Part shown: one piece after another, positions 2,916 to 31,699 of the stretch | How positions within the stretch are numbered: the stretch's first letter is position 1 | How the letters are laid out: each line of letters starts with the position of its first letter | Assembly: GCA_937132085.1 (NCBI GenBank) | Contig: CAKZNV010000163.1 | Location: 7,441-71,440 of the forward strand | Length of the DNA stretch: 64,000 bases | Source of the DNA: an uncultured Rubritalea sp. | GTDB taxonomy: Bacteria > Verrucomicrobiota > Verrucomicrobiia > Verrucomicrobiales > Akkermansiaceae | Direction of reading: 5' to 3' | The notes under the pieces: generated by a model | The model's database searches: none | Told to the model about the DNA's origin: nothing | The model's input: the letters and a program-made list of their open reading frames with translations, nothing else | Translations under genes and position numbers: made by a program

Positions 2916-4556
2916 ATGAATAGAAAACAAAAAGCGAAGAGATTCAAAAAGGAAGATAATATTTATAGGCCTATGACTCCTCATGAATCTCGACTGGCAT
3001 CTTATACTTGTCCTTCTGTCCCTCCTGAAGATTCGCTAGAAGGCTTCATTCTCAAACGAAAAATGGAGAAAGACATTGGATTCAAAATATTAATGAGAAA
3101 AATTGAAGCAGACATAAATTTCATTAGAATAGAAGCGGCATTGGGAGGTTCAGGACTATATATGTCCAAGCTTCTGAGAGGATATATTCATGAGTTCTAT
3201 CACCGCTTCAATACATGTGGACCGAAAGGCTTCCCCCTTTCCTTCAACATATTGGAAGCATTTTTCAACTTCGAGCATCTTCCGGCTCCATTCAAACTCC
3301 ATAGAGAGTATGAACATCTGTTGAAGTTAGAAGATTTTCTTATTTGGGGACAAAAAAAAGGGTTCTCAAATCCTCTCCTTGAAATTTCATCGCTCTTAAA
3401 AGAAGGTGAAATTTACTCATTCAACTTTCTACCGAACTCACACACTTTCAACCAGAGGAATGAAACTGACTTTGTTATTGCTGGAATTTCGATCGTTAGG
3501 CACGAACATGAACTATCTTGCGTTCTTCTGACTGGCGAAAGCCCCCCTTCTCTTCAGCCTAATTGCGATACCGATATGGCTACATACGAAGGCATGCCTG
3601 CTGAAAAGGAAAATCTGAAAATTGACCCCACACTAACTGAAGAAGATAGTTTACTTGAAGGCTATCCAGATCATGGCAGGGTTATACTCCTTAGTCGTAT
3701 TAATCTTGCGTCAAGCACGCACGACGTGCGATATATACTTCGAGATCTAGGTAATAGCTATTCTGTATCCACAGATGATCCTTCTGGTCTTGAAGACTTA
3801 AATGCTGACGATAGAGAAAGCTTACTCACGAATTCTCAATCTGTTATTGAAAATTACTCCGAGCTTTTCTCCTTGTTTCTCACACTCATTCAAATACCAA
3901 TTTATCTACATGATAGACAATCCGACGTTACCTCTTTCGATGTGTTTACTGAATATGGCAGTGAGAAAACTATGCCATCTTTACGTAAGCAACTCAAAGA
4001 CTGGCAAAAAGAGATTGATAAAACAAAATCTATCAACGGTCTTACAATTTGGGAAGATGATGACCCATACACTTTAGAAGTCAGCCCTCCTGATATTATT
4101 TTTGAAACAACTGGATACTGGAAACCTCTCTCTAACAATCAATTCGGTGTTGATGCACATGGAAACACTATTGCAGGGAAAACGTGGGTTAGCAGAAAGG
4201 ACAGTTGGGAAACTCCTCCTCCCGAAAGCTTTTTTATTCGTAAGCGCACTCCAATTACCGAAGGAGACAACCCAGGACATATCTACATTATGCGTAGCCC
4301 TTCTCATGAACCAGACATTTACAAAATAGGCCTAACTACAAATGAACCAAAAGACCGTGCTAAGCAGCTCAACAAGACCGCTACACCACTCCCCTTTGAG
4401 GTAATTGCTTCATGGCAAGTTGGAGACTGTAAATCAGCCGAAGCAGAGATACATCGCCTTTTAGAGGCTCGAAGGATCAACCCACGTAGAGAATTTTTCC
4501 ACGCTCCTCTTCAGGAAATAATTCAGATAGTGTCTAGTGTTTGTAATCTCGCTTAG
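2916..4556 (+). CDS. Large protein with C-terminal GIY-YIG (T5orf172-type) domain
   Basis: C-terminal GHIYIM...IYKIGLT...RAKQL...AEAEIH...REFF pattern; the N-terminal ~450 aa are unassigned. Confidence 0.7.
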   Translation: MNRKQKAKRFKKEDNIYRPMTPHESRLASYTCPSVPPEDSLEGFILKRKMEKDIGFKILMRKIEADINFIRIEAALGGSGLYMSKLLRGYIHEFYHRFNTCGPKGFPLSFNILEAFFNFEHLPAPFKLHREYEHLLKLEDFLIWGQKKGFSNPLLEISSLLKEGEIYSFNFLPNSHTFNQRNETDFVIAGISIVRHEHELSCVLLTGESPPSLQPNCDTDMATYEGMPAEKENLKIDPTLTEEDSLLEGYPDHGRVILLSRINLASSTHDVRYILRDLGNSYSVSTDDPSGLEDLNADDRESLLTNSQSVIENYSELFSLFLTLIQIPIYLHDRQSDVTSFDVFTEYGSEKTMPSLRKQLKDWQKEIDKTKSINGLTIWEDDDPYTLEVSPPDIIFETTGYWKPLSNNQFGVDAHGNTIAGKTWVSRKDSWETPPPESFFIRKRTPITEGDNPGHIYIMRSPSHEPDIYKIGLTTNEPKDRAKQLNKTATPLPFEVIASWQVGDCKSAEAEIHRLLEARRINPRREFFHAPLQEIIQIVSSVCNLA

Positions 4557-12178: not shown

Positions 12179-13510
12179 CTAATAATTTCGGGCTCTACGC
12201 TTTGCTTCGCGGATGAGTAAGCCGTTCGGACGCCCTTGCAAAGCGGCGCAAATTGTCATTCCCAACCTAAATCTACGCAACACCTCCAGCCTCGCTAGCT
12301 TCTGCCTATGCCGCTTTTGAATCATTTTCGGTCTTTCTTGCATCTTCACTGGTGCTCTATCGTGCGGAGTAGAGCGTTGACCTGCATTGCCTTCCTCAGT
12401 ATCTCTTGCCTCCTGCTTATGCTTTTCACTCTCGTTATTCTCAACCACCAACTCCTCTTTAAGACCATGCTCTATGTCTGCACCAGTCTTGATCAAAGCC
12501 ATCTGCAACTCTTTCTTTTCACTGCGGGTTAATAAAGAATTCTGAAATCTCTTCACCTTCTCTCTGCTAGAACTCAACATTTTGTTAGAACGTGCATCTA
12601 CAACAAAGCTCTTCACCTCCTTCCAGCTAGGTTTTCTATGAAAGGCTTCTTCAAACTCCCTTCTAAATCGAATCTTCGCCTCCCTAGACCGCTCCTTAAT
12701 AAATTGTTCAACACGAGCCTTATTCGGCTCTTGACCAAACAACTCCTGATATCTCCTCACAAACCGCTCTCGCTGAATACTTCGCTGTGAAAACTTTCTC
12801 TCTATAGTGTGAGAAACCTCATTAAGCCGAAAGCCATGCTCTCCCCAACTCACAGTATAGCCAATCGCCTCTGCTCTCTTTGCCAAATTCTGATAAAAAT
12901 ATTCTCGGATAGAAATCTTACTTTCCTCCATCATAGGACGTGGCTGTAAGGCTAGCCATTTTTGCCGATCTTCACAATATGTCACATTCCCAAACACCAA
13001 ATGTGTATGCAATAATGGATCTAACATTCTGCTCGTGTCATGCTGATAAACAGCGCACACCGCATTACCTGTAATCCGATATGACTCAGTATTCACATTC
13101 GTCCCATGCCGAACTCGAACCGCCGCAAACTCTTCCAGCTTCTTAAACGTTTCAATACTAGCTTTATGATACGCCTCAACCAAGCGTTCATCCCCTCCCG
13201 TTAGAGCCATTATACTATAAGACTTAGGAGCGGAAACGACTACATCGTGATAAGCCACTATCCGACTTCTCGGTGTCAGCTTCTCCCCTGTAAATGGATG
13301 CTGATTATTTCGTATTGCCTGAAAATGCTCTTCCTGGACTTCCACACCTAACAAACCCAACTTCTCCGCACCTTGACCATGCCAATAGCCTACCACCTTC
13401 TCGCTCTCGGAGTAATAATCGTTCGCAGAAAGGTGAACTCGTAAATAGTCCTTCCCATCCCTAATCTGGCTAATCGTAATCATCGTTCTAATAGTGATAC
13501 GGAAAACCAA
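12179..13510 (-). CDS. MOBF (TrwC-type) relaxase without helicase domain; likely start at 13483
   Basis: NDYY, YWHGQGAEKLGL, SAPKSYS and HDTSR..DP.LHTH (3-His) motifs; no Walker A motif. Confidence 0.88.
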   Translation of the reverse strand: MVFRITIRTMITISQIRDGKDYLRVHLSANDYYSESEKVVGYWHGQGAEKLGLLGVEVQEEHFQAIRNNQHPFTGEKLTPRSRIVAYHDVVVSAPKSYSIMALTGGDERLVEAYHKASIETFKKLEEFAAVRVRHGTNVNTESYRITGNAVCAVYQHDTSRMLDPLLHTHLVFGNVTYCEDRQKWLALQPRPMMEESKISIREYFYQNLAKRAEAIGYTVSWGEHGFRLNEVSHTIERKFSQRSIQRERFVRRYQELFGQEPNKARVEQFIKERSREAKIRFRREFEEAFHRKPSWKEVKSFVVDARSNKMLSSSREKVKRFQNSLLTRSEKKELQMALIKTGADIEHGLKEELVVENNESEKHKQEARDTEEGNAGQRSTPHDRAPVKMQERPKMIQKRHRQKLARLEVLRRFRLGMTICAALQGRPNGLLIREAKRRARNY

Positions 13511-13536
13511 CCAATCTAATCCAAAAAATAGATCAC

Positions 13537-13553
13537 AGGGACTCCCCTATGTT
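13537..13553 (+). other. Candidate oriT motif upstream of relaxase 1
   Basis: AGGGACTCCCCTATGTT lies between relaxase 1 and the leading-region-like cluster; a related copy sits upstream of relaxase 2. Confidence 0.5.
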
Positions 13554-13624
13554 TCCACTCTCGTTTATAAAGAGGTCATAAAGGAGCAATTCAGTTCCTC
13601 AATAACTCAAACAAAGGAGTCTCT

Positions 13625-13930
13625 ATGAGCAATAAACCTATTCTAACTGTTTCCGCTGGAGGGGGCGTAAAAGCGAGTGTCTGGAAAAATAATAACTCTG
13701 CCGATGGCTCAGATTTTTACTCTGTCACTCTTAACCGATCATACGAAAAAGACGGAGAGTGGAACGAAACCCAATCATTCCGTCGTGATGATTTGCCCAA
13801 GCTAGAATACGCTCTGAACAAAGCCTATGAGTTCATTCTATCCCAACAATATGAGGTTAACACGGATCATGAGCAAGGAACTCATGCATCACGCGTTTCT
13901 CGCGGTCAAGAATCGCAGGCAAGAGGTTAG
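13625..13930 (+). CDS. Small putative ssDNA-binding protein
   Basis: VKASVWKN...FYSVTLNRSYEKDGEW.ETQSFRRDDLPKL; strong AAGGAG RBS. Confidence 0.5.
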   Translation: MSNKPILTVSAGGGVKASVWKNNNSADGSDFYSVTLNRSYEKDGEWNETQSFRRDDLPKLEYALNKAYEFILSQQYEVNTDHEQGTHASRVSRGQESQARG

Positions 13931-13962
13931 AAAGAAAAATAAATAATTTCACCTAGCCTCAC

Positions 13963-14066
13963 GAAAAGCTCCGTCTCCGACGAGAAATATGGAAATCCCA
14001 TTCTCGACGAAGCTTTTCTCCCACTGAAAAAAACGACACACGGTGATGCTTCATCATCACCGTGTG
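13963..14066. promoter_or_regulatory. Two adjacent hairpins upstream of the second SSB-like gene
   Basis: Imperfect long stem GAAAAGCT...AGCTTTTC (13963-14018) and perfect 12-bp stem CACACGGTGATG/CATCACCGTGTG (14037-14066). Confidence 0.5.
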
Positions 14067-14095
14067 AATATTCTGTTGAATAAAAGGAGCAATCA

Positions 14096-14401
14096 ATGCC
14101 ATCAAAAACGATTAAAACCTTCTCTGCTGGATCGGGGATTCAGGCTAATGTTATTATGCAAACTCATCGAGGTTACCAACCCAGCTATAGCGTATCTGTA
14201 GCAAGACATTTCAGAAAGTCAGGCACACAGCAAGAATCTAACATTTACCTCAGAGATGACCTGCCAAAACTTGAGCATGTTATCCGCAAAGCGTTTGATT
14301 TTATCCTTACTCAACAGCAAGCCTCTCTGGAAGAAACTCTCAATTCTCATGTTTCTAAACTGGCTAAAGAGCAGACCGAAATTTCTTGGAGCAAGGCTTG
14401 A
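14096..14401 (+). CDS. Paralog of 13625-13930
   Basis: Same length (101 aa); shares SAG.G, YSV and RDDLPKLE...KA..FIL.QQ. Confidence 0.6.
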   Translation: MPSKTIKTFSAGSGIQANVIMQTHRGYQPSYSVSVARHFRKSGTQQESNIYLRDDLPKLEHVIRKAFDFILTQQQASLEETLNSHVSKLAKEQTEISWSKA

Positions 14402-14531
14402 ACCTCACAACTTAAACAACAAGCAGCTTAACTTGCCTATTCTACTTCAAGGGGGCAAGCCCCCTCAATAAGTAAACTGAAAAATCGTTTCCCCTTAAAA
14501 GGGAACCCACCATTTTTAAGCTGACTTCTTT

Positions 14532-14607
14532 CACCCCCGTAATTTTTGTCCCCCATGGGTTCATATGCGGAGATATGAACCCGTTCTATAATTAAAAAAA
14601 AGGAGAA
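14532..14607 (+). promoter_or_regulatory. Conserved hairpin leader, copy A
   Basis: CACCCCCG...GGGTTCATAT-GCGGAG-ATATGAACCC-N9-TTAAAAAAAAGGAGAA. Confidence 0.6.
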
Positions 14608-14614
14608 CCTAACT

Positions 14615-14989
14615 ATGATGTTACTAACCAAAGCCAATAAAGAAAAACTACTCGATAACGGCAACAAACAGCTACAACTCAGAGGCACAGATAAATGCCA
14701 TGATTTCTACCCCGTAGTTAAACTTTTCATGCCTCTTTCTGCTGCTACGTGGCTACTTACAGAAATCGACCCAGAAGACACAGACATCGCCTTTGGACTA
14801 TGTGACCTCGGCATGGGCTTCCCTGAGCTTAGAACTGTTAGCTTATCAGAATTAGAATCAGTCAAGATTCATGGCGTATCAATTGAACGAGATTTACACT
14901 TCAAAGCCGATAAACCTATCTCAGAATATTCCAGACTAGCACGGCAGCACGGACACATTGTTGAGCAATCTGAAGGGAGGTCAATCTAA
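14615..14989 (+). CDS. DUF2958-family protein
   Basis: PVVKLFMP...ATWLLTEIDPEDTDIAFGLCDLGMGFPEL..VSLSEL, with C-terminal ERDLHF. Confidence 0.8.
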   Translation: MMLLTKANKEKLLDNGNKQLQLRGTDKCHDFYPVVKLFMPLSAATWLLTEIDPEDTDIAFGLCDLGMGFPELRTVSLSELESVKIHGVSIERDLHFKADKPISEYSRLARQHGHIVEQSEGRSI

Positions 14990-15068
14990 CATCGCGTTCA
15001 AACCTTACTTGGCGGCAGTTCTAGCAATTGCCGCCAATATTTTAATATAAATCTTTACGGAGGCACTA

Positions 15069-15506
15069 ATGCCCAACAATCAAATCCCATACGAGCCTGG
15101 ACACCCTTGGTATTACGTCCTTGGTGGCAAGGTTCTGAAACCCAGTCAAATCAAACAAAATGTAATCAAAAGCGGCTATCAAGGCTACTTGAAAGAAGAT
15201 ATTGAAAAAGCTGCAAACAAGGTAGAACCTCAACGCTCAATAGCATTACGCAGAATAAGAGAATCTGCTAAAAATGATCTTTTCTCCGATTTGAGCCGCT
15301 ACCGTGAAGTAGTCAGAGAACTAAGCCAGCACCGAGCTAGTAACTTAGACAAAGAACCACAACATCACGACATCCATACAAGCATAAGCCTCAAACATAA
15401 CCACATTTACAATAATTTGGCTCATCTTGTCACCATAGACGACTTACTCTCAGAGCAACCAGAACTTGATTTATTCTCTTCTCTAGGAGGCGCAAATGGC
15501 AGATGA
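15069..15506 (+). CDS. Hypothetical protein coupled to the methylase-like gene
   Basis: 145-aa ORF with GGAGG RBS; overlaps the next gene. Confidence 0.6.
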   Translation: MPNNQIPYEPGHPWYYVLGGKVLKPSQIKQNVIKSGYQGYLKEDIEKAANKVEPQRSIALRRIRESAKNDLFSDLSRYREVVRELSQHRASNLDKEPQHHDIHTSISLKHNHIYNNLAHLVTIDDLLSEQPELDLFSSLGGANGR

Positions 15507-16266
15507 AACCTACCGCACAATAATAGAGCAAATAGCTAGAACTAAATCGTCAACCATCACCGTGTTTGCAGATTTTTGCCGTATCGCCGCTTGTTGCTTT
15601 GCCGCAGGAACTAGAGAAGATGAATATTTTGAAGCCATCAAAAGCTATTCTAAAGACGAGCTAACACAGCTTTCCAAAGCTCTAGCCTTACTCATCTCAG
15701 AAATGGAGTCTAAGCCATTCACCGATGTTCTAGGCACTTACTATTTAGACATCGCTAGCCACTCCAGCAAACAAAGCCGAGGTGAATTCTATACACCACC
15801 AGAAATATCAAAGCTAATGGCAAAAATATCCGTAAATGCAGAATCGGTCATCGAAAAAGGCAAACCAATCACCGTCAACGAACCTGCCTGTGGAGCTGGT
15901 GGCATGATGCTAACCCTAGCAGAACAATTCGCCCCTCATTCAACAGGCAAAGAAAAAAGCTATGTAGACTTACTCCGCGTAACCTGCCAAGACATCAACC
16001 CCGTAGGCGTAGACATGTGCTACATAAACATGACCCTCTGGGGCATCCCAGCTACAATGATATGCGGTGACACCTTGCGAGGCACAATCAACAATTCATG
16101 GAAAAATATACATTGGCATCGCGTTGGCGAAGACCAACGCCAAGCAGTAGAAAACATGCTAGACTTCATCAAAAATCCACAAGCGGAGGAAAAAGAAAAA
16201 CCTGCTGACATTACAATGCCTAGTGCCTTTTTTCAAACTGGAGAACAGATGGAGTTAGGCTTTTGA
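15496..16266 (+). CDS. N6-methyltransferase-like protein (SAM-binding part; NPPx motif not seen)
   Basis: GEFYTP, EPACGAGGM, QDINP and GDTL motifs. Confidence 0.7.
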   Translation: MADETYRTIIEQIARTKSSTITVFADFCRIAACCFAAGTREDEYFEAIKSYSKDELTQLSKALALLISEMESKPFTDVLGTYYLDIASHSSKQSRGEFYTPPEISKLMAKISVNAESVIEKGKPITVNEPACGAGGMMLTLAEQFAPHSTGKEKSYVDLLRVTCQDINPVGVDMCYINMTLWGIPATMICGDTLRGTINNSWKNIHWHRVGEDQRQAVENMLDFIKNPQAEEKEKPADITMPSAFFQTGEQMELGF

Positions 16267-16270
16267 TTTT

Positions 16271-16591
16271 TTACTGCGCTCCAGATTGCGCGATAGGCAC
16301 TAGCCTAATTTTTAAATGTAAGCCGTTCAGAACATCACGTAGCGTTTCTATAGTCGGATTACCTTTCTCAGATAAAGCTCGATACAAGTTTTCACGCTTA
16401 ATATTCACATTCTCAGCTAGCTTGCCTAAGCCTCCCTGAGCCTCAGCAACACTTCGCAGAGCAAGCATAAGCGAAGCTCTATCATCATCGGCTTGAAACT
16501 CTTCAAAAGCCGCTTCCAAATACCCTCTAGCATTTTCTGAATCCGCTAGGTATTCCTTCTTATATTCACTCCATTTTTTTGTTTTAGCCAT
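16271..16591 (-). CDS. HigA-like addiction-module antitoxin (HTH)
   Basis: YLEAAFEE...LALRSVAEAQGGLGKLAE...RENLYRALSEKGNPTIETL. Confidence 0.85.
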   Translation of the reverse strand: MAKTKKWSEYKKEYLADSENARGYLEAAFEEFQADDDRASLMLALRSVAEAQGGLGKLAENVNIKRENLYRALSEKGNPTIETLRDVLNGLHLKIRLVPIAQSGAQ

Positions 16592-16922
16592 TGTCTTTAT
16601 CCTCCAAGTAATTTTTCCAGTAATCTTGTGCTTGCGTAATATCCTTATTCTGGGATTTTTTATCCCCTCCTGTTAGTAGTAAAACGATCTTTCCATCATC
16701 AACCCCATAATAAACTCGATACCCAGAACCAAAGAAAAACCTTAGTTCTGAAACACCTTTGCCGACGATTTTATGGTCACCAAAGTTACCGAGCTGAACA
16801 CGGTCAAGACGAGCCATAATTCGATTCTGAATATTACGTTCCAAACTTTTCAGCCATGATTCAAATGGAGCCTTTCCACTTTCCAGAACATAAATCTCAA
16901 TTTCGTATTCAACTCTTCCCAT
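16584..16922 (-). CDS. RelE/HigB-family addiction-module toxin
   Basis: PFESWL...RIMARLDR...GNFGDHK.VGKGVSELR..FGSGYRVYY...LLLTGGDK. Confidence 0.87.
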   Translation of the reverse strand: MGRVEYEIEIYVLESGKAPFESWLKSLERNIQNRIMARLDRVQLGNFGDHKIVGKGVSELRFFFGSGYRVYYGVDDGKIVLLLTGGDKKSQNKDITQAQDYWKNYLEDKDNG

Positions 16923-17122
16923 CTGAGTTTAATTGTATCATAAACGATACAACCCGTCAACCAGTTCCTACAGCAGCAAAGCAATTGAATCTTCAAGCAC
17001 TTAGACAAGTGCTTATAAGGTGGCGCGGCCCCCTCAAAATCAAGCAGATTAGTAAATTGTCCTCGGAAGTTTTCATTGATTTTTGATGTCCTGCGGGACT
17101 TTACGAATCGGCTTGATTCCTA

Positions 17123-17197
17123 CACCCCCGCCCTCGCCGGGAGCAAGGTTTCATATGCAGGCATACGAAACCCTGCATTCATTAAAAAAAAGGAGAA
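17123..17197 (+). promoter_or_regulatory. Conserved hairpin leader, copy B
   Basis: CACCCCCG...GGTTTCATATG-CAGG-CATACGAAACC-N9-TTAAAAAAAAGGAGAA. Confidence 0.6.
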
Positions 17198-17201
17198 TAT
17201 A

Positions 17202-17558
17202 ATGACACATACTTTTTACCACGCTAAATCATCTGCTAAGCTATTTGGCGGCACTCCAGAGGACTATCTGGAAATTCATCATTGGTTTGATGCCACGAAA
17301 GAAAGCTTTTGTGATTTCAGACACAGGGCTATTCGCCACCACTCAGAAGGCATTTTTGAATGTGAACGAATTTTCGGCACAACGATAACCAACAGCGACG
17401 GCAAAGAAATACCAACTCGTTATATTGGTGAGCAACATGTCATGGAAGATTGTGGAGGCTATGTCCCCTCCCTCAGCGACTGGCTTTCCACCATCCAGCC
17501 TAAGCCGTGGATGGCAAAAGCAACTCAAGTTGGCGCAAGAGCAAGGAGGGCTGAATAA
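17202..17558 (+). CDS. DUF6915-like protein (start reassigned to the ATG at 17202)
   Basis: HAKSSAK.FGG.PEDY..IHHWFD...RHRAIRHHSEGIF..ERIFG...EQHVMED; RBS directly before 17202. Confidence 0.7.
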   Translation: MTHTFYHAKSSAKLFGGTPEDYLEIHHWFDATKESFCDFRHRAIRHHSEGIFECERIFGTTITNSDGKEIPTRYIGEQHVMEDCGGYVPSLSDWLSTIQPKPWMAKATQVGARARRAE

Positions 17559-18004
17559 TGGAATCTAGTAAAAAAGCATACATGAAGACACTGGCTACAA
17601 TTTTACCCATACTTCAGAAGCATAAAATTAAATCTGTTGAAGTATCATTTGAAGGCTGTGGCGATAGCGGTGCTATTGATGATATCACATTTAATCCATC
17701 TCTACCTGATGAGTTAGAAACCTTACAAATCTATTACCACACTTCTCGGAGGGAGCTTTCAGAAGGTAACTGGCTATGGAGTAATATAGAGGAAACAGGC
17801 TCTGTTCAAGATGCCATCGAAAAACTAACCTACGAGTTTTTAGAAGCAACTCAAGTTGACTGCTATAATAACGAGGGAGGATTTGGCAAACTTATTATCG
17901 ACACCAAAGAGGAGTCCGTCACTCTTGACGTAAACGTTAACTATTACGAATCCTATAATGAATTCAGCTCTAAACTAGGCATTATTACAGGAGAGGAAAT
18001 ATAG
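17558..18004 (+). CDS. DUF6878-like protein
   Basis: VEVSFEGCGDSG and NNEGGFG motifs; TAATG coupling to the upstream gene. Confidence 0.65.
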   Translation: MESSKKAYMKTLATILPILQKHKIKSVEVSFEGCGDSGAIDDITFNPSLPDELETLQIYYHTSRRELSEGNWLWSNIEETGSVQDAIEKLTYEFLEATQVDCYNNEGGFGKLIIDTKEESVTLDVNVNYYESYNEFSSKLGIITGEEI

Positions 18005-18025
18005 TAGGTAATTAGTTGCATACAC

Positions 18026-18119
18026 AGAGGCACAGTAACCACTTCGGAACTGTGCCTCTACCCCGAAAACAAGTCGCCCTATGGGAAGACACAAGACCCT
18101 TAGCGCATTCGCGCTAAGG
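18026..18119. terminator. Two hairpins closing the leading-region-like cluster
   Basis: AGAGGCACAGT/ACTGTGCCTCT and CCTTAGCGC-ATTC-GCGCTAAGG. Confidence 0.5.
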
Positions 18120-24261: not shown

Positions 24262-25683
24262 TTAGTTTGCAGTGTTGTAGAAAATGTGTCCACCAGCTTT
24301 ACCATCTTTCCACTTCAAGTGTTGTAAATCATTACCAGCTTCAATTTCACGCGTATTTTTATCATTATGCACTTCATATCCCTTTTTGTAGACCTGCCCC
24401 CTATCTTTAGAATATTGCTTATAGCGATTCATGTTTCCTCTAGCCTCGACGAGAAGCTTCTTTGCATCCGTAGCATTCACGGTTCTAAAATTCAATTTGC
24501 CTTTACCTAGTCCAGAGAGACTTTTGACAGCAGCTTTCCACTCTTTTGTTTCTGGCTTAATCGTAGAGAGACCAGATGCTACACCTTCTCTCTTGATTCT
24601 TCCTTTCTTATTATAGCTCGCTAGCTTCTTTGATTCAACTTCTATCTTACGAGCTAACTTATTTGGTATTCCTAATGCATGGTTAACTTTAATCTTCCCC
24701 CTTTGATCCTTAGCTAGTTTTTTTATCAGTTTACGACTAGACGTGAGCTTAGAGTTAACTCCATTCAAAGCTTTAGCCCACTGTGTTCTCCGTTTGTGAG
24801 TTTTCTTACTGCCTCCAACTTGAGGTCTATTGGCGTGGTTAGGAGAATGCCCTACAGACTTTTTAATCTTCTTTCTATCTGCCCTTCTAGCAGTTTTAAG
24901 TTTCCTCCCCTTTTTACTTGTCTTGCCACTAATTGACCTTCTTTCTATTCGTGGTTTGTTTTTTACATTTGTTCTAAAAGTTCCTGATTTTCTAGCTGAT
25001 ATTCCAGACTTAGCACTATGATATTTCGCTACTGTGTTTCTGTAGCCTTTCCTTATACGAACTGAATTTCTGCCTATTTTGCCATACTTTACACCCCTTC
25101 TAACATTTGCTTGTTTAGACTGAAAAGAGCTTCTCACTCTTCCAGCGGATGCTCTTAACCTGCTTTTTGCTGTAGTAACCTTCCTCTTAACCGCAGAACG
25201 TGTATTTCTAGCAGTTGTTCTAACGTTATTAAAGCGTCTCCGTGCAGTAGAACGAGCAGTCCTATATTTATGCTTGGCTGATTGTCTAACATTCCGACCT
25301 TGCCTCCCAATGTTTGCACTTATTTTACGCACCCTTTTCCGAGCACCTTTAACACTACGCTTAGCCCTCCAATTAGCGATTCTTGCTTGTCGTCTAATTC
25401 GAGGTTGAGATCGTGGAACAACTTTACGAGCAGAGTTAGGTTTTACTTTCGGTTTAGGAGCAGGACGAGGCTTTGGCTTTGGGCGTGCTTTGGGTTGCGG
25501 TTTAGGGCGAGGCTTCGGACGTGGCTTAGGTTTAGGACGAGGTTTTGGGGCTGTTTTAGCGAAATAAAATGCAACAGTTCCCCCTCGCCCTTTAAACTGA
25601 ACAGCGTCTATAGGGACAACTAGAAGAAAGCTGAATAGAAAAAACAGATTTTTACGTAACAGTAGGTGGAAACTAAAATTCAT
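24262..25683 (-). CDS. Secreted Pro/Lys/Arg-rich protein with C-terminal toxin-like tip
   Basis: Signal peptide, (PK/PR)n tract and long R/K-rich region; C-terminal YEVH...NDLQHLKWKD..GGHIFY. Confidence 0.6.
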   Translation of the reverse strand: MNFSFHLLLRKNLFFLFSFLLVVPIDAVQFKGRGGTVAFYFAKTAPKPRPKPKPRPKPRPKPQPKARPKPKPRPAPKPKVKPNSARKVVPRSQPRIRRQARIANWRAKRSVKGARKRVRKISANIGRQGRNVRQSAKHKYRTARSTARRRFNNVRTTARNTRSAVKRKVTTAKSRLRASAGRVRSSFQSKQANVRRGVKYGKIGRNSVRIRKGYRNTVAKYHSAKSGISARKSGTFRTNVKNKPRIERRSISGKTSKKGRKLKTARRADRKKIKKSVGHSPNHANRPQVGGSKKTHKRRTQWAKALNGVNSKLTSSRKLIKKLAKDQRGKIKVNHALGIPNKLARKIEVESKKLASYNKKGRIKREGVASGLSTIKPETKEWKAAVKSLSGLGKGKLNFRTVNATDAKKLLVEARGNMNRYKQYSKDRGQVYKKGYEVHNDKNTREIEAGNDLQHLKWKDGKAGGHIFYNTAN

Positions 25684-26309
25684 TTTCTCTGCAATAGCTT
25701 ACGACTATCTAATATCACCCCTTCTTCAAACTTTTTATATTTATCACTCTCTATGACTTTTAGTAATTCTGCTAAGGCATTCATAGGGAATGGAACACCT
25801 GCATCCAAAATATCAGTTGCGGCTAGTTTTAAGGATTCTAGCCTTGTGTGTTCAGGAGCGTCTTTCTCCAGATACTCCGTGAGTAGAACCGAAAGTGTTT
25901 CCTCTAATTCTTCACAAACTTGGAACAGTTCAAAATAAATAGAATGATCGTATTTAGGCGGAGCACCCCTCTCTTTTGCATTATATTTATACCAGAAATA
26001 AATATCCTCATAATATGAAAGCTCTGAATTTTTATAGAGAGTGAGTAGCATTTCATACTTCCGCTCTAGGCTCTCGGCTTCTTGCATTAGCTCCTCTAGA
26101 TCCAGAGCGTCCATTTGTTGATTGTATTCCGCCTCAAACTGCTCTTCCATCTTAATGGCATCGAGAGTAGCATCTATTTCTGCTTCACTTAAACTAGATT
26201 CCTCCTGTATGCCCTTGGATTCAAACGAAGATTTTCTTTGCTGTTCCTTACAAGCATTCAGAAGACTCAGTGCTATTGATAGGCTTCCATAATATATTAT
26301 TTTTCTCAT
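25680..26309 (-). CDS. Acidic lipoprotein
   Basis: Lipobox-like LLNAC; E/D-rich helical body. Confidence 0.65.
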   Translation of the reverse strand: MRKIIYYGSLSIALSLLNACKEQQRKSSFESKGIQEESSLSEAEIDATLDAIKMEEQFEAEYNQQMDALDLEELMQEAESLERKYEMLLTLYKNSELSYYEDIYFWYKYNAKERGAPPKYDHSIYFELFQVCEELEETLSVLLTEYLEKDAPEHTRLESLKLAATDILDAGVPFPMNALAELLKVIESDKYKKFEEGVILDSRKLLQRK

Positions 26310-26320
26310 ACCTGTTTGTG

Positions 26321-27868
26321 TTACTCTGTTCCTCCTGGAAAGCTTTCAATATATTTTACGGCTCTTTGATACATCAATTTCACCAACAATTCATTATCCC
26401 CGTAATAATGAATACAAAGTTTCTTTGCATCCATTAAACCTTGCCTATCAATAATCCTCAATAACCTTTCCTTTATTTCATTAGGCTTGTTAATTAAAGA
26501 TGTCCTATCTCCCCCAGCCCCGAGGTGATCTCCTGCAATAAGTTGGAATAATTGGAAAAGGTTTTTCTTATTCTTATAACGTGAGAAACTTTCTTCAAAA
26601 TTTGCTACAGTCCTTGTAAATCTGCCCGCTCCTAATTTCATCTTGGCTTCACCTCTAGCAGCGGCTCCTCCCATGACAAATTTGGGAGGCCATTTCGCTA
26701 CTTCTTGCATCATGAAAAACAAAGACTCACCTTCAAACTCATTTACAAAAGCAGTCATGTATCTTAATCGGTCATAAGAATCACTTGATCCTATTTGAGG
26801 CTGAGGAACACTATCTTCTATTAAATCTTTAATGTGGTGATGACCTGCAAAATCATTTAAATCAATCTTTTGCTTTTGCACGGCTATACTAGCCTTTGCG
26901 TATCTCAACTCACTCGCACGTCTTAAATACTCTCTTCTTCTTTCCTCATTCTTTTCTAACTCTACTCGATTACCCAAATTCCATGCAGCTGTCGCAGAGC
27001 CTAGAGCTTCTGCATTTAGCATTAACTCTCTAGCATCTTTCCATTTTTCCATTCGAACAGCGATTCTTCCCATTCCAGCCATTAACCTCGGCTGATCACT
27101 TCTCTGTTCAGCAAAACCTTTATATGCCATATAAACCTCTTGTTGTTCACTAGGCTCAATCCACGCCATAGCCTCGTCAGTCACAGTAGGGGAAGATCTA
27201 GGCACTTCTTCGTCATTTGGGTCAGCTGACACTCTATCAATCTCTAGAATAATTTCTTTTTCTATCTTTCGAGCTAATTCTCCAGCTGGTGAAAAACTTC
27301 TTGAAGCTTCAAGGAGTAACTTTAACTTCCTCATTTTTAGCCGCGGAGTTTCTTGTGCTGTAATTAACTTCCCACTCTCATTCTCATATATCCCATCTAA
27401 TAGATTTGTTTTTGCCTGGTAATATTTTGCGGAAGAAGAGCCAGATTTCACGGCTAATTGCCAATAGTGATCTGCTGTCTCCAAGTCTCCTAGGTAGTAG
27501 GCGATTCGGCCCATTGCAAAAGTGTATTCAGCTTTATCAGAATTGTTTTCTACAAATTTGAACGCCTTTTCACTTTCGAGTATAGAACGAGCTTCTGCTC
27601 TGTTTACTTCGCCAGATTCCCAAGCTAAATCTAGATTTCCTCTCCCTTTGGAGAATGGATCTTTCGGATGAGCTCCAGTTCGTATAACTAATTTTAAAAA
27701 TATGTCCTCTCTATCTTTATGAGACATCTCTTTATCTAATACAGTCGTCAGAGCAAATTCTTCCTCTGCATTTTCCCGATATGAAGAGGACGTGTTGCGT
27801 TTTGATAACGCTATCAATCCCCCTATAAGCACGGATGCTGCAAAAATGGTTATTCCTATATTCTTCAT
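26321..27868 (-). CDS. Membrane-anchored TPR/Sel1-like repeat protein
   Basis: N-terminal hydrophobic helix; two similar repeats MGRIA.......A......A...GS..A. Confidence 0.6.
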   Translation of the reverse strand: MKNIGITIFAASVLIGGLIALSKRNTSSSYRENAEEEFALTTVLDKEMSHKDREDIFLKLVIRTGAHPKDPFSKGRGNLDLAWESGEVNRAEARSILESEKAFKFVENNSDKAEYTFAMGRIAYYLGDLETADHYWQLAVKSGSSSAKYYQAKTNLLDGIYENESGKLITAQETPRLKMRKLKLLLEASRSFSPAGELARKIEKEIILEIDRVSADPNDEEVPRSSPTVTDEAMAWIEPSEQQEVYMAYKGFAEQRSDQPRLMAGMGRIAVRMEKWKDARELMLNAEALGSATAAWNLGNRVELEKNEERRREYLRRASELRYAKASIAVQKQKIDLNDFAGHHHIKDLIEDSVPQPQIGSSDSYDRLRYMTAFVNEFEGESLFFMMQEVAKWPPKFVMGGAAARGEAKMKLGAGRFTRTVANFEESFSRYKNKKNLFQLFQLIAGDHLGAGGDRTSLINKPNEIKERLLRIIDRQGLMDAKKLCIHYYGDNELLVKLMYQRAVKYIESFPGGTE

Positions 27869-27872
27869 TTCC

Positions 27873-28415
27873 TTAGTTTTTTTTGTGTTTACGAGATGAC
27901 TCAGCTTTGAACTTACGATATTTCTCGATTCTTTTCTTCAATGAGCTAATAAGAAATTCTTCTTGTCTAACTTGATACTCAAGATTTTGAAGCTCTCTCT
28001 CATGCTCTCCTAATAGATCATCCTTATGACGATCTAGCTCAGCCGATTTAATTTTGAGCAACCTCATTCTTAAAGACGACCGTCTGACTTCTTTTTCAAG
28101 GTCATAAATTTTAGCCCTTTGCTCATTAAGTAGAATCTGCTGCTTTTCATTTTTTGCCACAATTTGAGATAAATTATCGTTTTCGTTTTTCAATATGCCG
28201 CGAAGTGTAGCAAGAGAACGTTCACTCGTTTCTAATCTCTTCTTAGATAAGGACAGCTCTCCTTTCTTCTTTTGCACAAACTGTTCCATGTTTTTACTGC
28301 AAAACATAACTTGTATCGACGTTGCTGAGCGTGGATCAATAGCCCCACTAGGGCAACAACTATCTAACATTATTGCTGATACTATTAACACAGAACAATT
28401 AAGTGACTTTTTCAT
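27873..28415 (-). CDS. Coiled-coil lipoprotein
   Basis: LDSCC lipobox-like sequence, DPR motif, long heptad region. Confidence 0.6.
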   Translation of the reverse strand: MKKSLNCSVLIVSAIMLDSCCPSGAIDPRSATSIQVMFCSKNMEQFVQKKKGELSLSKKRLETSERSLATLRGILKNENDNLSQIVAKNEKQQILLNEQRAKIYDLEKEVRRSSLRMRLLKIKSAELDRHKDDLLGEHERELQNLEYQVRQEEFLISSLKKRIEKYRKFKAESSRKHKKN

Positions 28416-28433
28416 TCTCTTTTTTGCTTTATC

Positions 28434-29297
28434 TTAAAAAGGAACAGCATCGCGTATTCCCTTTAAATTGACTCCGAATGGATTCCATTTACCACTTGCT
28501 CCGATACTATTATCATAAGATTTTGAACCAGATCTTTTGATTAAATTGTCCAGCATTCTCTCAGCTCTAGATTTTATTCCTAGCATCTCATTAAAGCGCG
28601 TTCTGTGCTTCGACTTCTTATAAGATAACTGTCTTACCAGCACTTTTAATTTCCCTCGTTCAATACCTTGAACTCTATTAGCATCTGCTATTACATTCTC
28701 GGTGTAGAGGATTGACCTTTTAACATAAACAATTTCACTATCTAGAGCTTTGATAAACTCCGATAGCCTAGCAATGACTAAACTATTCTTTTCCGCTGAA
28801 TATTGACCTTTGCTATTCTTAACATTTGCACGAGATATTTGACTTCGGATGCTATTTAGCTCGGAGTTAAAAAAATTCTTCAACTTCGTATTATTGCTAA
28901 GAGCTAGTTTAGAATATGATATTTCTTTGTCTAAAAACTCAGCTCGGCTTGAATATTTCATTCGCTTTGCTGCAACGCTAGTAGCAACGCTATCGCTAGC
29001 TTTAGAGAGAACTGCTACCGCAAGACCTGCATAGACTACTTTCTTAAGTTGCCTAGGATCTTTAAGTTTTATCTGAATGTTTTTTGCCAGATATCGAACC
29101 CTAGAGCTACTAGCAGAAATATTAGGCTTCTTACGATAGGCTTGGGTTTTGAGAGGTGAAGTCGTAGGACTCGAGATCTTTGGCAAGCCACTGACTATTT
29201 TCATAGGATCAATAGACGAGCAGTTACTCAATCCAATACAGCTCCCAATAGCCACTGCCATGGCTCCAACATTTCTTAATATTAATTTTATTTTCAT
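28434..29297 (-). CDS. Coiled-coil lipoprotein with internal hydrophobic segment
   Basis: LSNCSS lipobox-like sequence; VVYAGLAVAVL segment followed by a coiled coil. Confidence 0.6.
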   Translation of the reverse strand: MKIKLILRNVGAMAVAIGSCIGLSNCSSIDPMKIVSGLPKISSPTTSPLKTQAYRKKPNISASSSRVRYLAKNIQIKLKDPRQLKKVVYAGLAVAVLSKASDSVATSVAAKRMKYSSRAEFLDKEISYSKLALSNNTKLKNFFNSELNSIRSQISRANVKNSKGQYSAEKNSLVIARLSEFIKALDSEIVYVKRSILYTENVIADANRVQGIERGKLKVLVRQLSYKKSKHRTRFNEMLGIKSRAERMLDNLIKRSGSKSYDNSIGASGKWNPFGVNLKGIRDAVPF

Positions 29298-29941
29298 TAC
29301 TTTGTTGTTTTATTCTTAAATAGAAATACTTGAGGATGTGGATAGTGTCGTTTCCATATTTTTTTTGATTGCTTCAAAGCTGATACATCAGACTTCAATA
29401 ATAATTCATTTTTTAAGATGAAATACCTTTGCTCTGATCGTAAATTAGATAGCTTTTTTTCCTTTGCTATTGTGTTATTTAAACTTAAAATGACCAATTC
29501 AGGTTCTTCTCGATATACATCAATTAGTCTCGCTATCCCTTCTATTAGCAACTTCCGATCTTCTTCTTTAGTAGCAACTCGATCTACTAAAGCCGCTTTA
29601 AGAGCAGTTTCGCTTTCAAAATCAGCGCTCTTCACTGAATCTTTTTGTAGAATTTTTAATTGAGCTATCTCCTCGTCCCCTTTTAAGCAACTAATCCAAT
29701 CTCTGTCTATTTGAACTAGCGAAGTCTCAATATTCGGCTTTACCTTGTCCACAGCTCTTTTATCAAACATTTTAACACACAACAAACCGACGCCTAAACC
29801 TGTAGCGATTAAAACGATGAGTGCTACAAACCTAAACGAAGCGATCTTACGAACAAAACCCTTCCATTCTAAAGGCTCTATATTTTTATCCTTAGAAGAA
29901 TCCTCCTCAGGTATATTGATTTCTATTTTTTCTTTTTTCAT
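29297..29941 (-). CDS. Single-pass membrane protein with helical extracytoplasmic domain
   Basis: FVALIVLIATGLGVGLLC transmembrane segment; coupled to both neighbours. Confidence 0.65.
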   Translation of the reverse strand: MKKEKIEINIPEEDSSKDKNIEPLEWKGFVRKIASFRFVALIVLIATGLGVGLLCVKMFDKRAVDKVKPNIETSLVQIDRDWISCLKGDEEIAQLKILQKDSVKSADFESETALKAALVDRVATKEEDRKLLIEGIARLIDVYREEPELVILSLNNTIAKEKKLSNLRSEQRYFILKNELLLKSDVSALKQSKKIWKRHYPHPQVFLFKNKTTK

Positions 29942-30885
29942 TTCAAAACTGCTAATAATAATGCACTTAACACTCCAGACGAGTCATTCGTGAACACCCC
30001 CCTATCTCCAGCGGCTACTGCTAGATGTTCAAAAAATTGTTTAGATGCTCGATCTCTTCTGCTACTTCCATTTCCAGTAAAACAAGCTACCATGGTAAAA
30101 TTGGCATTTTGCTTAGATAAGCTCATTACTTTCGATACAATATTGTTTTCGATTTGCGACTGACGGGTAGAACCAATGGTCACATTTTTAACCTCATAAG
30201 GACCGACATCACCAAATACAACCACTGCCTGTCTCCCTTCGTTTCCCAGAGATGCTTTAGACACTTCCAATGCTTTCAGTAAAGCTTGCTCTATATCTGC
30301 ATTACCTCCTCCCGCTTTAAGACCTTTTGTAAACTCTATAAGTTGCTGGGCTGAATGATGAAGCTTCTCTGGATCATATTCAATTTTTTGATTCAGTAAG
30401 GAATATATAGTTCCTTTAGCGTAAGCAATAATTGAGATAGTAACTCTGGGCGAAATTGCTGGTAAAGATTTTGATAACGCCTCGATGCTCGTTTTAAGTT
30501 GCTCTATCTGACTTGACATTGATCCAGATATGTCAATGACAACCACGAGATCTAACGGTTGACTTGAAATGTCACCTGATTTTTTAGAGTCTTCATTTGT
30601 TATTTTTTGATTCTCTGCATCTACCGCAAAACCTCTATTTTCAACCTCTAGCGAAACCTTATCTTGTTCAGATTTACTAAGTTGGGCTTCTAACTCTTTA
30701 ATCTCTTCCTTCTGTTCTTTTATAATTTCGCGAGCTACAGGATCACCCTCCGTTTTAAAATCACCCTCTTTAACCACCGATAAAGCAATCATCAGTAATA
30801 GAACAAAAATTGCCATCGTAGCAAATATCAAATCACTAAAAGACTCATAGAATGAAGGTTGAGTATCTGCTCCGCTAAGTTTCAT
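29938..30885 (-). CDS. MotB/ExbD-like TM helix + coiled coil + vWA domain protein (start reassigned to 30885)
   Basis: SFSDLIFATMAIFVLLL carries the conserved TM Asp; MIDAS-like DISGSMS and FGD. Confidence 0.75.
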   Translation of the reverse strand: MKLSGADTQPSFYESFSDLIFATMAIFVLLLMIALSVVKEGDFKTEGDPVAREIIKEQKEEIKELEAQLSKSEQDKVSLEVENRGFAVDAENQKITNEDSKKSGDISSQPLDLVVVIDISGSMSSQIEQLKTSIEALSKSLPAISPRVTISIIAYAKGTIYSLLNQKIEYDPEKLHHSAQQLIEFTKGLKAGGGNADIEQALLKALEVSKASLGNEGRQAVVVFGDVGPYEVKNVTIGSTRQSQIENNIVSKVMSLSKQNANFTMVACFTGNGSSRRDRASKQFFEHLAVAAGDRGVFTNDSSGVLSALLLAVLK

Positions 30886-31699
30886 TACTTCCTTCCTTGC
30901 TACTGTTTTCCGCATTTTTTCTTAATGCAGGAAGAATGTAAATTTCTGTCATTTCCAGCACATACGCCACGTATTTAGTTATTTGAGAATCCATAACACT
31001 AGCCAGAATACGTAAAATAATTCCTCCACATAAAGAACCTAAAAGAGTTGTATAAAAAGCAAGGCCTAGCCCAGCAAGAGGTCCTTCTGCACCTAGCAAG
31101 CTTTGAAGTAATCCACCTGAATCCTGCTTAATGTTCTGTATTGCCAAAGTAAGATCCTCCATCATGATGATAAGACCTACAATCGTTCCTACCAAGCCAA
31201 GCGTGACTAGGATACTAGCGAATATGTTAACGTCTCTAATTCGGAAACGTAACATTGTGTGCATATTCTCAAGCAGGTTATCTTGCTCTACTTTATGATG
31301 CACTTGAGATATTTTTTCTAAAGAACGTATGTGACCAACAAACAAACCAGAGTGAGATAGGTTATCCACCACTTCATTCAAACCTTTGTTCTCTCTAATA
31401 GAATTAATAATGTTCCGAGCTTCCACAAACTCTTGATCCAAATGAACAGCACCTATAATCAACTTACAAATCATTATAACCGATATAGATAGAATCAATA
31501 CGTAGAATATTATGCCTGATTGATTGTCGAGATACGCTTGGTAAGAAACCCATCCAACACCACCTAACAGTAGCAACCAAAAAACCGTGCTAACTAGAGC
31601 TCCTGACGTTTTATTATTTGAAGTATTACAGTTTAGACTCACAATTGATTGAATAAATTTTTCGTTTACAATATACGCTATGCTTGACAGATCTGCCAA
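30875..31699 (-). CDS. MotA/TolQ/ExbB proton-channel family protein
   Basis: TLGLVGTIVGL and GLGLAFYTTLLG channel helices plus two N-terminal TM segments. Confidence 0.8.
   Translation of the reverse strand: MADLSSIAYIVNEKFIQSIVSLNCNTSNNKTSGALVSTVFWLLLLGGVGWVSYQAYLDNQSGIIFYVLILSISVIMICKLIIGAVHLDQEFVEARNIINSIRENKGLNEVVDNLSHSGLFVGHIRSLEKISQVHHKVEQDNLLENMHTMLRFRIRDVNIFASILVTLGLVGTIVGLIIMMEDLTLAIQNIKQDSGGLLQSLLGAEGPLAGLGLAFYTTLLGSLCGGIILRILASVMDSQITKYVAYVLEMTEIYILPALRKNAENSSKEGSNET

Follow-up and report, generated by a model that had tools for sequence, protein, structure and literature searches.

A conserved, duplicated hairpin leader in front of two operons of an integrated mobile element in an uncultured Rubritalea, with relatives in other bacteria and on plasmids

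The 64,000-nucleotide (nt) stretch of DNA analysed here, which we call the window, comes from an uncultured Rubritalea sp. of the phylum Verrucomicrobiota (assembly GCA_937132085.1, contig CAKZNV010000163.1, positions 7,441 to 71,440 of the forward strand). It carries a transfer RNA (tRNA) gene at 1400-1472, two tyrosine-recombinase genes at 1608 and 9511, and two TrwC-type relaxase genes on the minus strand: a short one without the helicase part at 12179-13510, and a full-length relaxase-helicase at 35518-38217 that is accompanied by a coupling protein and type IV secretion genes. The two relaxases share only 33% identity, and they may represent an integrative element with a mobilisable partner beside or inside it, or two tandem elements. 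To the right of the short relaxase gene, on the plus strand, lie the open reading frames (ORFs) orf13625 and orf14096, a DUF2958 gene, orf15069 and an orphan N6-methyltransferase gene; then come a minus-strand Gp49/HI1420 toxin-antitoxin pair and the genes for DUF6915, DUF6878 and an Mrr nuclease. Directly before the DUF2958 and DUF6915 genes stand two copies of a hairpin-bearing leader. We find that this leader is conserved above its flanking genes and contains a helix that covaries among its relatives, and we weigh what it may do.

A preliminary description, made from the letters of the sequence, had placed a duplicated leader at 14532-14607 and 17123-17197, made of CACCCCCG, a 26-nt hairpin, a 9-nt spacer and TTAAAAAAAAGGAGAA; all of these parts can be read directly at both sites, and Pfam agrees with the two genes it named behind them. 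Its positions were right, but the extent was not: the 75 nt it flagged are only the last part of modules of about 160-180 nt. When the two leaders are aligned with their counterparts on a second contig of the same assembly (C128), the order of the module is a GC hairpin (H0), a fold-back, a C-rich tract (C-tract), a second hairpin (H3) and an A-rich Shine-Dalgarno sequence, as follows.

14450..14465, plus strand: H0 of copy 1, GC hairpin AGGGGGCAAGCCCCCT, followed by CTCAA; left end of the module, with counterparts in copy 2 (17019-17033) and in both C128 copies.
14467..14530, plus strand: fold-back of copy 1, arms 14467-14488 and 14509-14530 (22-nt arms, 77% complementary).
14532..14539, plus strand: C-tract of copy 1, CACCCCCG, read directly.
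14557..14582, plus strand: H3 of copy 1, GGGTTCATAT-GCGGAG-ATATGAACCC, with a 10-base-pair (bp) stem (100% complementary) and the loop GCGGAG.
Between H3 and 14592, plus strand: 9-nt spacer of copy 1, GTTCTATAA, read directly.
14592..14607, plus strand: A8 run and Shine-Dalgarno sequence of copy 1, TTAAAAAAAAGGAGAA, read directly.
14615..14989, plus strand: DUF2958 gene, the first behind copy 1, ATG at 14615 (PF11171, E-value 9e-40).
17019..17033, plus strand: H0 of copy 2, GC hairpin GGTGGCGCGGCCCCC, followed by CTCAA (read and aligned).
17038..17118, plus strand: fold-back of copy 2, arms 17038-17056 and 17100-17118 (19-nt arms, 89% complementary).
17123..17130, plus strand: C-tract of copy 2, CACCCCCG, followed by CCCTCGCCGGGAG, read directly.
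17143..17176, plus strand: H3 of copy 2, with the core GGTTTCATAT-GCAGGC-ATACGAAACC at 17147-17172, extendable (from fold and alignment).
Between H3 and 17182, plus strand: 9-nt spacer of copy 2, CTGCATTCA, read directly.
17182..17197, plus strand: A8 run and Shine-Dalgarno sequence of copy 2, TTAAAAAAAAGGAGAA, the same 16-mer as in copy 1.
17202..17558, plus strand: DUF6915 gene, the first behind copy 2, ATG at 17202 (Pfam, E-value 1e-47).
17558..18004, plus strand: DUF6878 gene, after DUF6915 (Pfam).

The upstream part that both copies share runs from H0 through CTCAA (14450-14468; 17019-17038) to AGTAAAYTG and the fold-back, and between the fold-back and H3 both have a short pyrimidine stretch, CACCCCCG and about 20 nt. 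The fold-back of copy 1 contains a small hairpin, TTCCCC/GGGAA, with the 3′ bulge CCCACC, and this region is 95-100% identical to its counterpart on C128; the fold-back of copy 2 contains the words TGTCCTCGG and GTCCTGCGGGAC, which also belong to a core found on many plasmids. The distance from H3 to the A8 run is 9 nt in both copies despite their different spacer sequences. Allowing up to two mismatches, the 16-mer TTAAAAAAAAGGAGAA occurs exactly twice in the window (0.27 expected), and at up to one mismatch there are likewise two sites in the whole 4.46-Mb assembly. The C-tract word CACCCCCG occurs three times in the window, where 0.34 are expected, and the third site, at 43179, lies within a minus-strand ORF with no adjoining hairpin.

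Contig C128 (8557 bp), when reversed, is syntenic with window positions 13961-18059 at 82-84% nucleotide identity, and it holds one more copy of each leader (copies 3 and 4), again before a DUF2958 gene (93% identical) and a DUF6915 gene (91%). With all four copies as queries, blastn-short found no fifth in the assembly. The leaders are conserved above the genes that flank them: identity to the C128 counterpart is 97.6% for leader 1 (126 nt) and 95.6% for leader 2 (90 nt), and in 40-nt windows identity is 0.93-1.0 across 14436-14634 and 0.88-1.0 across 16990-17147, against 0.65-0.9 in the flanking genes and 0.25-0.7 in other intergenic stretches. What differences there are between the window and C128 leaders are confined to loops, homopolymer runs and the spacer after H3. 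C128 may stem from a second related element, or from a strain variant that was binned with this assembly; it also differs in the gene between DUF2958 and the methyltransferase, and in the stretch that matches the toxin-antitoxin pair of the window.

Relatives were sought around 33 DUF6915 loci in genomes, recorded as Verrucomicrobiota, Alpha- and Gammaproteobacteria, Planctomycetota and others, and around 80 DUF2958 loci in metagenomes. DUF6915 itself was found in 3 of the 401 genomes sampled from the phylum of the window, its own assembly included and the other two being weak matches, and in 1 of 401 genomes in the phylum sample around G401. No closely similar leader occurs at any of the 33 DUF6915 or 80 DUF2958 loci, many of which do have a GC-rich hairpin 15-40 nt before the Shine-Dalgarno sequence. 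In two genomes with both genes (L008 and L010), the regions upstream of DUF2958 are not repeats of those upstream of DUF6915; the H3 pattern had no match in viral contigs, and copy 1 had no blastn match among plasmids. More distant relatives do exist, before DUF2958, DUF6915, ArdC-like, DUF736-like and DUF932 genes, and three related leader types can be told apart: an alphaproteobacterial type, a subgroup resembling copy 2, and the leaders of Paracoccus plasmids. The alphaproteobacterial type has the layout ...GGTATCCCC...GTGCAG..GGGTGATCCCCCTCC, followed by a C-tract, at least one hairpin and a Shine-Dalgarno sequence, and it occurs in two to three copies per element before DUF6915, DUF2958, ArdC-like, DUF736-like and other genes. 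Of the 401 genomes in one class sample, 15 contain an exact 14-mer of this type, at 20 sites of which some are chance matches, whereas the reversed control has 2; no match in the window was obtained with an nhmmer profile built from this type. In the subgroup (L084, L119, L121, L142 and L151) the 3′ half can be aligned with copy 2, as in the words CTACACCCCCGCCCTCGCCGGGAGCAAGGTTTCA of copy 2 and CTACCCCCGGCCTCGCCGACGGGCAGAGGTTCA of L084, and the CCCCG of the C-tract is invariant in all ten aligned sequences, alphaproteobacterial relatives included.

The preliminary description had pointed to a compensatory change from G-C to T-A within the hairpin and had looked to homologs for covariation. 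The change is there, at the third stem pair of H3 (G-C in copy 1, T-A in copy 2), and in relatives both H3 and a closing helix of the alphaproteobacterial type covary. Across the four copies of the assembly H3 shows one compensated pair and one broken pair, and on the plus strand the H3 of copy 2 has two A.C mismatches, one in the core stem and one in the extension. Among 12 members the base of the stem takes the forms GGGTTC/GAACCC, GGTTTC/GAAACC, GAGGTTC/GAACCTC, GGGGTTC/GAACCCC and GGGTTGC/GCAACCC; these members together have 114 Watson-Crick pairs, three A.C and two G.T, and loops of 3-18 nt. H3 is a real conserved helix. In the alphaproteobacterial type, RNAalifold finds five to seven double changes per pair of the closing helix in 15 sequences. 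Once extended, this helix is 11-14 bp long in most copies and different in sequence in each, its arms lie about 45-95 nt apart, and among 11 helices (about 130 positions) there is one G.T and no A.C. More widely, 34 of 101 non-identical upstream regions have a hairpin with at least eight Watson-Crick pairs, with 12 A.C against 10 G.T, counts too few to tell the folding strand; the A of the mismatches is conserved in its own right and bulges out in other members. What is conserved across phyla is the stem base GGTTYC/GRAACC together with the flanking words CCCCG...CTCGCCG...GGGAG, and this points to a specific partner.

A further set of relatives lies on plasmids. Window positions 17125-17153 are 93-96% identical over 28-30 nt to four Paracoccus plasmid records, and in the two of them examined, a small ORF (L155) or an ArdC-like gene (L156) begins about 110 nt downstream of the match. 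With the Paracoccus leader as query, 393 places in 261 plasmid records matched, most of them sharing a core of 43-63 nt that reads GTCAAGGGG-CCGTGTCCTCG-small covarying hairpin-CTGCGGGCCGCACCAA-CCCCTTGAC and has inverted ends of 9-10 bp. Between a Paracoccus and a Xanthomonas plasmid the core is 98% identical over 53 nt. Four ordered words weakly suggest that copy 2 is homologous to this core, and copy 1 shares fewer. On L160, a 4.1-kb Rep_3 plasmid of Paracoccus, two convergent, inverted copies of the core lie upstream of rep. The 16-kb Xanthomonas plasmid pLMG965-1 (L162) has 100% identical, inverted 63-nt cores at 1288-1350 and 4288-4350, which flank a block of genes from virB5 to type IV secretion, and a plasmid related to it (L163) has one core copy and an IS5 insertion in the type IV secretion block. 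On L157 a core copy stands without a co-oriented gene behind it.

As the preliminary description had proposed, Rfam was searched, and no family matches the leaders: Rfam 15 at the gathering score gave only the tRNA across the whole window, the region 14300-17400 gave chance-level matches only at E-values up to 10, and at E-values up to 1 nothing fell on the leaders of 16 relative loci. One hit elsewhere, unrelated to the leader, is a ROSE thermosensor at L155 926-1025 (minus strand; 38.6 bits against a gathering score of 45), upstream of an Hsp20 gene.

Which strand enters a new cell bears on every interpretation. The available text of PMC11541004 states that the relaxase operon is transcribed away from the origin of transfer (oriT) and is transferred last. 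Both relaxase genes of the window are on the minus strand and the genes served by the leaders are on the plus strand, so by this rule, which works from gene order, the plus (coding) strand would be the one transferred. A plus-sense copy lies on the strand so assigned in all three cases that can be oriented, namely the window, L160 and L162. By tblastn, relatives of the window relaxases were found neither in any locus flank nor in G407 or G408, so orientation was judged only in the window and three small plasmids, of which pP14_e was uninformative.

Our tentative preference, held at somewhat less than even confidence, is to read the flagged part as a transcribed 5′ leader whose local hairpin leaves a strong ribosome-binding site open. 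On this view a standard expression module of about 160-180 nt would head the establishment operons of conjugative elements, and the flagged 75 nt would be its ribosome-proximal end. There a C-rich tract and a stable H3 would stand at a constant 9 nt from an A8 run that is free of structure and is followed by a strong Shine-Dalgarno sequence, and H3, by folding on itself, would keep the upstream sequence off the ribosome-binding site; it may also protect the messenger RNA (mRNA) or bind a factor. The outcome would be efficient translation of the first gene wherever the module is placed, and the upstream half, with the GC hairpin and the fold-back, probably holds a start or entry signal. In the elements examined the module is co-oriented with the next gene and adjoins its Shine-Dalgarno sequence, whether that gene is of the DUF2958, DUF6915, ArdC-like, DUF736-like or DUF932 kind. 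In L084a, L084b and L142 only 0-2 nt separate the extended H3 stem from the Shine-Dalgarno sequence, and since this leaves no room for a promoter, H3 must be transcribed there. Transfer of the coding strand, as assigned by the relaxase rule, also fits an ordinary mRNA leader.

The fold around the ribosome-binding site bears on the same reading. In the minimum-energy folds of both copies, the pyrimidine stretch just 5′ of CACCCCCG pairs with the Shine-Dalgarno sequence, but this candidate anti-Shine-Dalgarno window ranks merely 7th of 125 and 9th of 142. GGAG is paired with a probability of 0.53-0.73 in the native leaders, whereas dinucleotide shuffles (200 each) give 0.66-0.76, and 54%-94% of the shuffles are at least as paired at GGAG as the native leaders, copy 2 being the 94% case. 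On these two grounds a riboregulator or RNA thermometer that sequesters the Shine-Dalgarno sequence was rejected; since pairing is not above that of shuffles, the leader does not hide its ribosome-binding site and, if anything, keeps it open. In a third type of DUF2958 leader the Shine-Dalgarno sequence does pair with an upstream stretch, and the pairing covaries when read by eye (TCTCTCC/GGAGAGA, GTCTCC/GGAGAC), which points to control at the RNA level in the wider group.

Several observations weigh against a transcribed leader. Consensus and relaxed scans found no plus-strand sigma-70-like promoter matching at least 9 of 12 positions in any of the four modules, which leaves copy 2, beside the divergent toxin-antitoxin operon, without an evident source of its transcript. 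Wobble pairs are rare, with two G.T against 114 Watson-Crick pairs in H3 and one in about 130 positions of the closing helix; a covarying RNA helix would be expected to have more, and this scarcity looks rather like that of a DNA hairpin. As RNA, copy 2 folds better on the minus strand (-34.3 kcal/mol, z-score -3.7) than on the plus strand (-23.0 kcal/mol, z-score -2.8). Finally, the plasmid core also occurs without a co-oriented gene behind it, on L157, in the inverted pair of L160 and in the inverted copies of L162, and for these sites an RNA leader offers no explanation.

The preliminary description had offered three options, an ssDNA (single-stranded DNA) promoter, a priming signal or a cis-regulatory RNA. 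Its general picture stands, in that a conserved, structured cis element heads establishment-type operons and covaries among relatives, and its analogy to the Frpo/ssi promoters finds no support in the features examined below. Readings in which the module works in the incoming single strand, as a priming signal or promoter, are together the chief competitor of a transcribed leader. It is possible, though short of probable, that the leaders are diverged members of one superfamily that acts on the incoming strand as a new, host-independent entry signal, for priming, transcription or both, with an architecture unlike enterobacterial Frpo and coupled to a built-in translation start. The superfamily so conceived would comprise the structured modules that head establishment operons in several phyla, with a related core on at least 261 plasmid records.

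Somewhat doubtful, in our judgement, is the narrower proposal of a priming signal. Here the module, chiefly its fold-back half, would fold in the transferred single strand and recruit a primase or primosome, complementary-strand synthesis would start at each operon boundary and run back towards the nick, and proximity to the ribosome-binding site would merely follow from tight intergenic packing. Such a role would account for the related cores outside leader contexts (the inverted pair of L160, the inverted copies of L162, and L157) and for stems that are nearly all Watson-Crick, and near-identity across bacterial classes would suit recognition by conserved host replication proteins. The plus-sense copies on the assigned transferred strand, in three of three cases, agree with it, and there is precedent in ssiA and ssiB of IncQ plasmids, which the available part of PMC8567376 gives as 40-nt hairpin signals on opposite strands of oriV, and in Frpo, which also primes DNA synthesis according to the title of Masai and Arai (1997) as cited in PMC11541004. 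However, the homology of the fold-back to the plasmid core comes down to four short ordered words in copy 2 and fewer in copy 1, and the nhmmer profile that found nothing in the window was built from a different relative, the alphaproteobacterial type. Priming also leaves unexplained the fixed 9 nt between H3 and the A8 run, and the H3 that abuts the Shine-Dalgarno sequence in relatives. The MobA of L160 has no RepB′-type primase domain and no primase was found among the window proteins scanned (Pfam), and the transferred strand itself is assigned from gene order.

A promoter of the Frpo type, in which folding of the template strand after transfer would recreate a promoter and let transcription precede complementary-strand synthesis, is unlikely. 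The module is repeated before establishment-type genes beside a relaxase, as such a promoter would be, and the lack of an ordinary promoter in the modules would agree with it. Copy 2, moreover, folds best as DNA on the template strand, at -45.1 kcal/mol (261 nt, z-score -4.2), and in L009, read by eye, 27-nt fold-back arms carry TTGACG-N16-TAGGCT on the would-be non-template arm. Yet the fold of copy 1 reaches only -24.8 kcal/mol (236 nt, z-score -1.7), both template-strand folds consist of several separate hairpins instead of one large stem-loop, and both fall far short of the value that the accessible text of PMC12672017 gives for an ssDNA promoter search, namely below -75 kcal/mol per 300 nt. 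Neither scans nor reading of the arms by hand found a -35/-10 pair rebuilt in a stem on either strand of copies 1-4. Judged by the relaxase rule, the window, L160 and L162 would all transfer the coding strand, not the template. The excess of A.C over G.T on the plus strand is small (3 against 2; 12 against 10), and the A at these mismatches is conserved and elsewhere bulged. The sole consensus promoter match in the four copies, TTGAGG-18-TAGAAT on the minus strand of copy 1 at 14468-14439, spans H0 and is aimed away from the gene. Copy 2 has a leftward counterpart, TTGAGG-14-TATAAG at 17038-17017, also across H0, and in the alphaproteobacterial type the same leftward arrangement of TTGACA, an H0 hairpin and a weak -10 can be seen by eye.

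Rather improbable is a double-stranded promoter and operator, with H3 as the palindromic site of an element-encoded repressor that overlaps a promoter, so that both operons would fire together in a new host lacking the repressor. Repeated operators do stand before the leading-region operons of R388 (ArdK) and RK2 (KorA, KorB). A perfect TATAAT directly follows H3 in copies 1 (14587-14592) and 4, with TGTAAT in copy 3, and the inner half-sites CATAT-N6-ATATG lie 11 bp apart, centre to centre. The -10-like hexamer is lost in copy 2, however, no -35 fits, and no cognate repressor was found. The half-sites TTCATAT/ATATGAA are kept within the assembly, with one change in copy 2, whereas relatives keep neither their sequence nor the loop length and retain only the pairing: stems change, loops range from 3 to 18 nt and no promoter room is left after H3, which is how a nucleic-acid helix behaves and not a protein site of fixed geometry. 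Nor would an operator suit the alphaproteobacterial closing helix, with its 11-14 bp, a sequence unique to each copy and arms about 45-95 nt apart. A selfish miniature repeat, that is, a core with 9-10-bp inverted ends that spreads in intergenic plasmid DNA without a function for its neighbours, would explain the identical or near-identical copies within and between unrelated plasmids, in varied contexts and both orientations, but is very improbable given the fixed orientation and distance to the next gene's Shine-Dalgarno sequence in the elements examined, window copies that differ from each other while each is conserved against C128 far above neighbouring genes, and target-site duplications that were not seen, although no systematic search for them was made.

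Three smaller candidates within or near the leaders were dropped: a small ORF inside H3 (MRRYEPVL in copy 1; 15 codons with a stop overlapping the ATG in copy 2) is absent from the Paracoccus relatives, a CsrA-type GGA in the H3 loop is found in copies 1 and 4 only, and the spacing of putative LexA boxes is unfit.

Elsewhere in the window, several features deserve mention in their own right. Each TrwC relaxase gene is followed by a small minus-strand ORF of about 110 amino acids. Two strong hairpins lie at 13955-14070, between orf13625 and orf14096; the divergent relaxase gene starts some 450 nt away, and the hairpins are candidates for the origin of transfer, for which the stretch 13511-14096 is the candidate region. 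The first is nested and about 62 nt long, with arms 13963-13975/14006-14018 and 13975-13986/14001-14012, and is 88-95% identical on C128; the second, at 14037-14066, is a perfect 12-bp hairpin, CACACGGTGATG/CATCACCGTGTG, whose loop differs on C128. A perfect palindrome with 8-bp arms, AAGCACTT-AGAC-AAGTGCTT at 16995-17014, is a candidate operator; it sits between the module of copy 2 and the toxin-antitoxin promoter (TTGACG-17-TACAAT, minus strand, 16960-16932) and is retained on C128 with one change, whereas the adjoining toxin-antitoxin region is not. The small protein of orf13625 (13625-13930) belongs to no Pfam family and has relatives of 38-42% identity in Verrucomicrobiota assemblies, directly upstream of DUF6915 (L007 2666-2866) and DUF2958 (L042 1253-1426), and seems to accompany these genes recurrently. 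At 24262-31699, eight consecutive minus-strand genes share one orientation; this run, mostly without a Pfam family and ending in two genes with VWA and MotA/ExbB-like domains, is possibly an element-borne defence or membrane system.

The leaders apparently belong to a large, unnamed family that stands before first-needed genes on mobile elements of many bacteria. The switching on of protective genes soon after entry into a new cell is known experimentally only for a few enterobacterial plasmids, and here a conserved non-coding module heads operons of this kind in an integrated element of an environmental bacterium, with relatives before ArdC-, DUF2958-, DUF6915-, DUF736- and DUF932-type genes in Alpha- and Gammaproteobacteria and, as recorded, in other phyla. 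If the module is an entry signal, the idea of single-strand signals would reach far past the IncF and IncI plasmids and take in another architecture; if an RNA leader, the module would be a widespread cis-regulatory RNA absent from Rfam. Either way it offers a sequence handle for locating establishment regions and their poorly known genes.

Among known systems, the Frpo/ssi promoters of F, ColIb-P9 and pESBL, classes 1-3 in the available texts of PMC11541004, PMC12672017 and bioRxiv 10.1101/2025.04.03.647016, are alike in being conserved, structured non-coding elements that recur, several per element, directly ahead of early or establishment genes. The leaders share this trait, with repeats directly before leading-region genes, two in the window, two on C128 and two to three per element in relatives. 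As those texts describe them, Frpo/ssi elements differ in being single large hairpins with the -35 and -10 boxes rebuilt on a transferred strand that is the template of the gene; the window modules consist of several small hairpins (-25 and -45 kcal/mol), rebuild no such boxes, and probably have the coding strand as their transferred strand. The ssiA and ssiB signals of IncQ (RSF1010), so far as the available part of PMC8567376 describes them, are likewise short, complex, conserved hairpin signals on opposite strands beside a replication gene, and the core related to copy 2 forms a similar inverted pair upstream of rep in L160. In contrast to IncQ, L160 has a Rep_3 initiator and a MobA without a recognisable RepB′ primase domain (Pfam), and the window copies, unlike the IncQ origin pair, are direct repeats before genes. 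For ssiA the same text gives a 6-nt tail, a hairpin at nt 7-27 and a GTG start triplet, and no match to these could be established.

In the portions of the literature available to us there is no published description of the module, with the exception of an unnamed, covariation-supported motif upstream of DUF736 genes (cluster #378,112, bioRxiv 10.64898/2026.10.21.760802), and as a whole the family seems otherwise undescribed. That gene family carries the alphaproteobacterial leader type at L076, L101, L119 and L121; the available text of the preprint differs from our account in giving no sequence, no mechanism and no connection with conjugative elements. That this cluster and the leader family are identical is our guess. 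The leaders also resemble the hairpin insulators and 5′ stem-loops of bacterial mRNAs, which likewise place a stable local hairpin ahead of an A-rich ribosome-binding site free of structure. Insulators of this kind are generic, whereas here the stem base and the flanking words are conserved across phyla.

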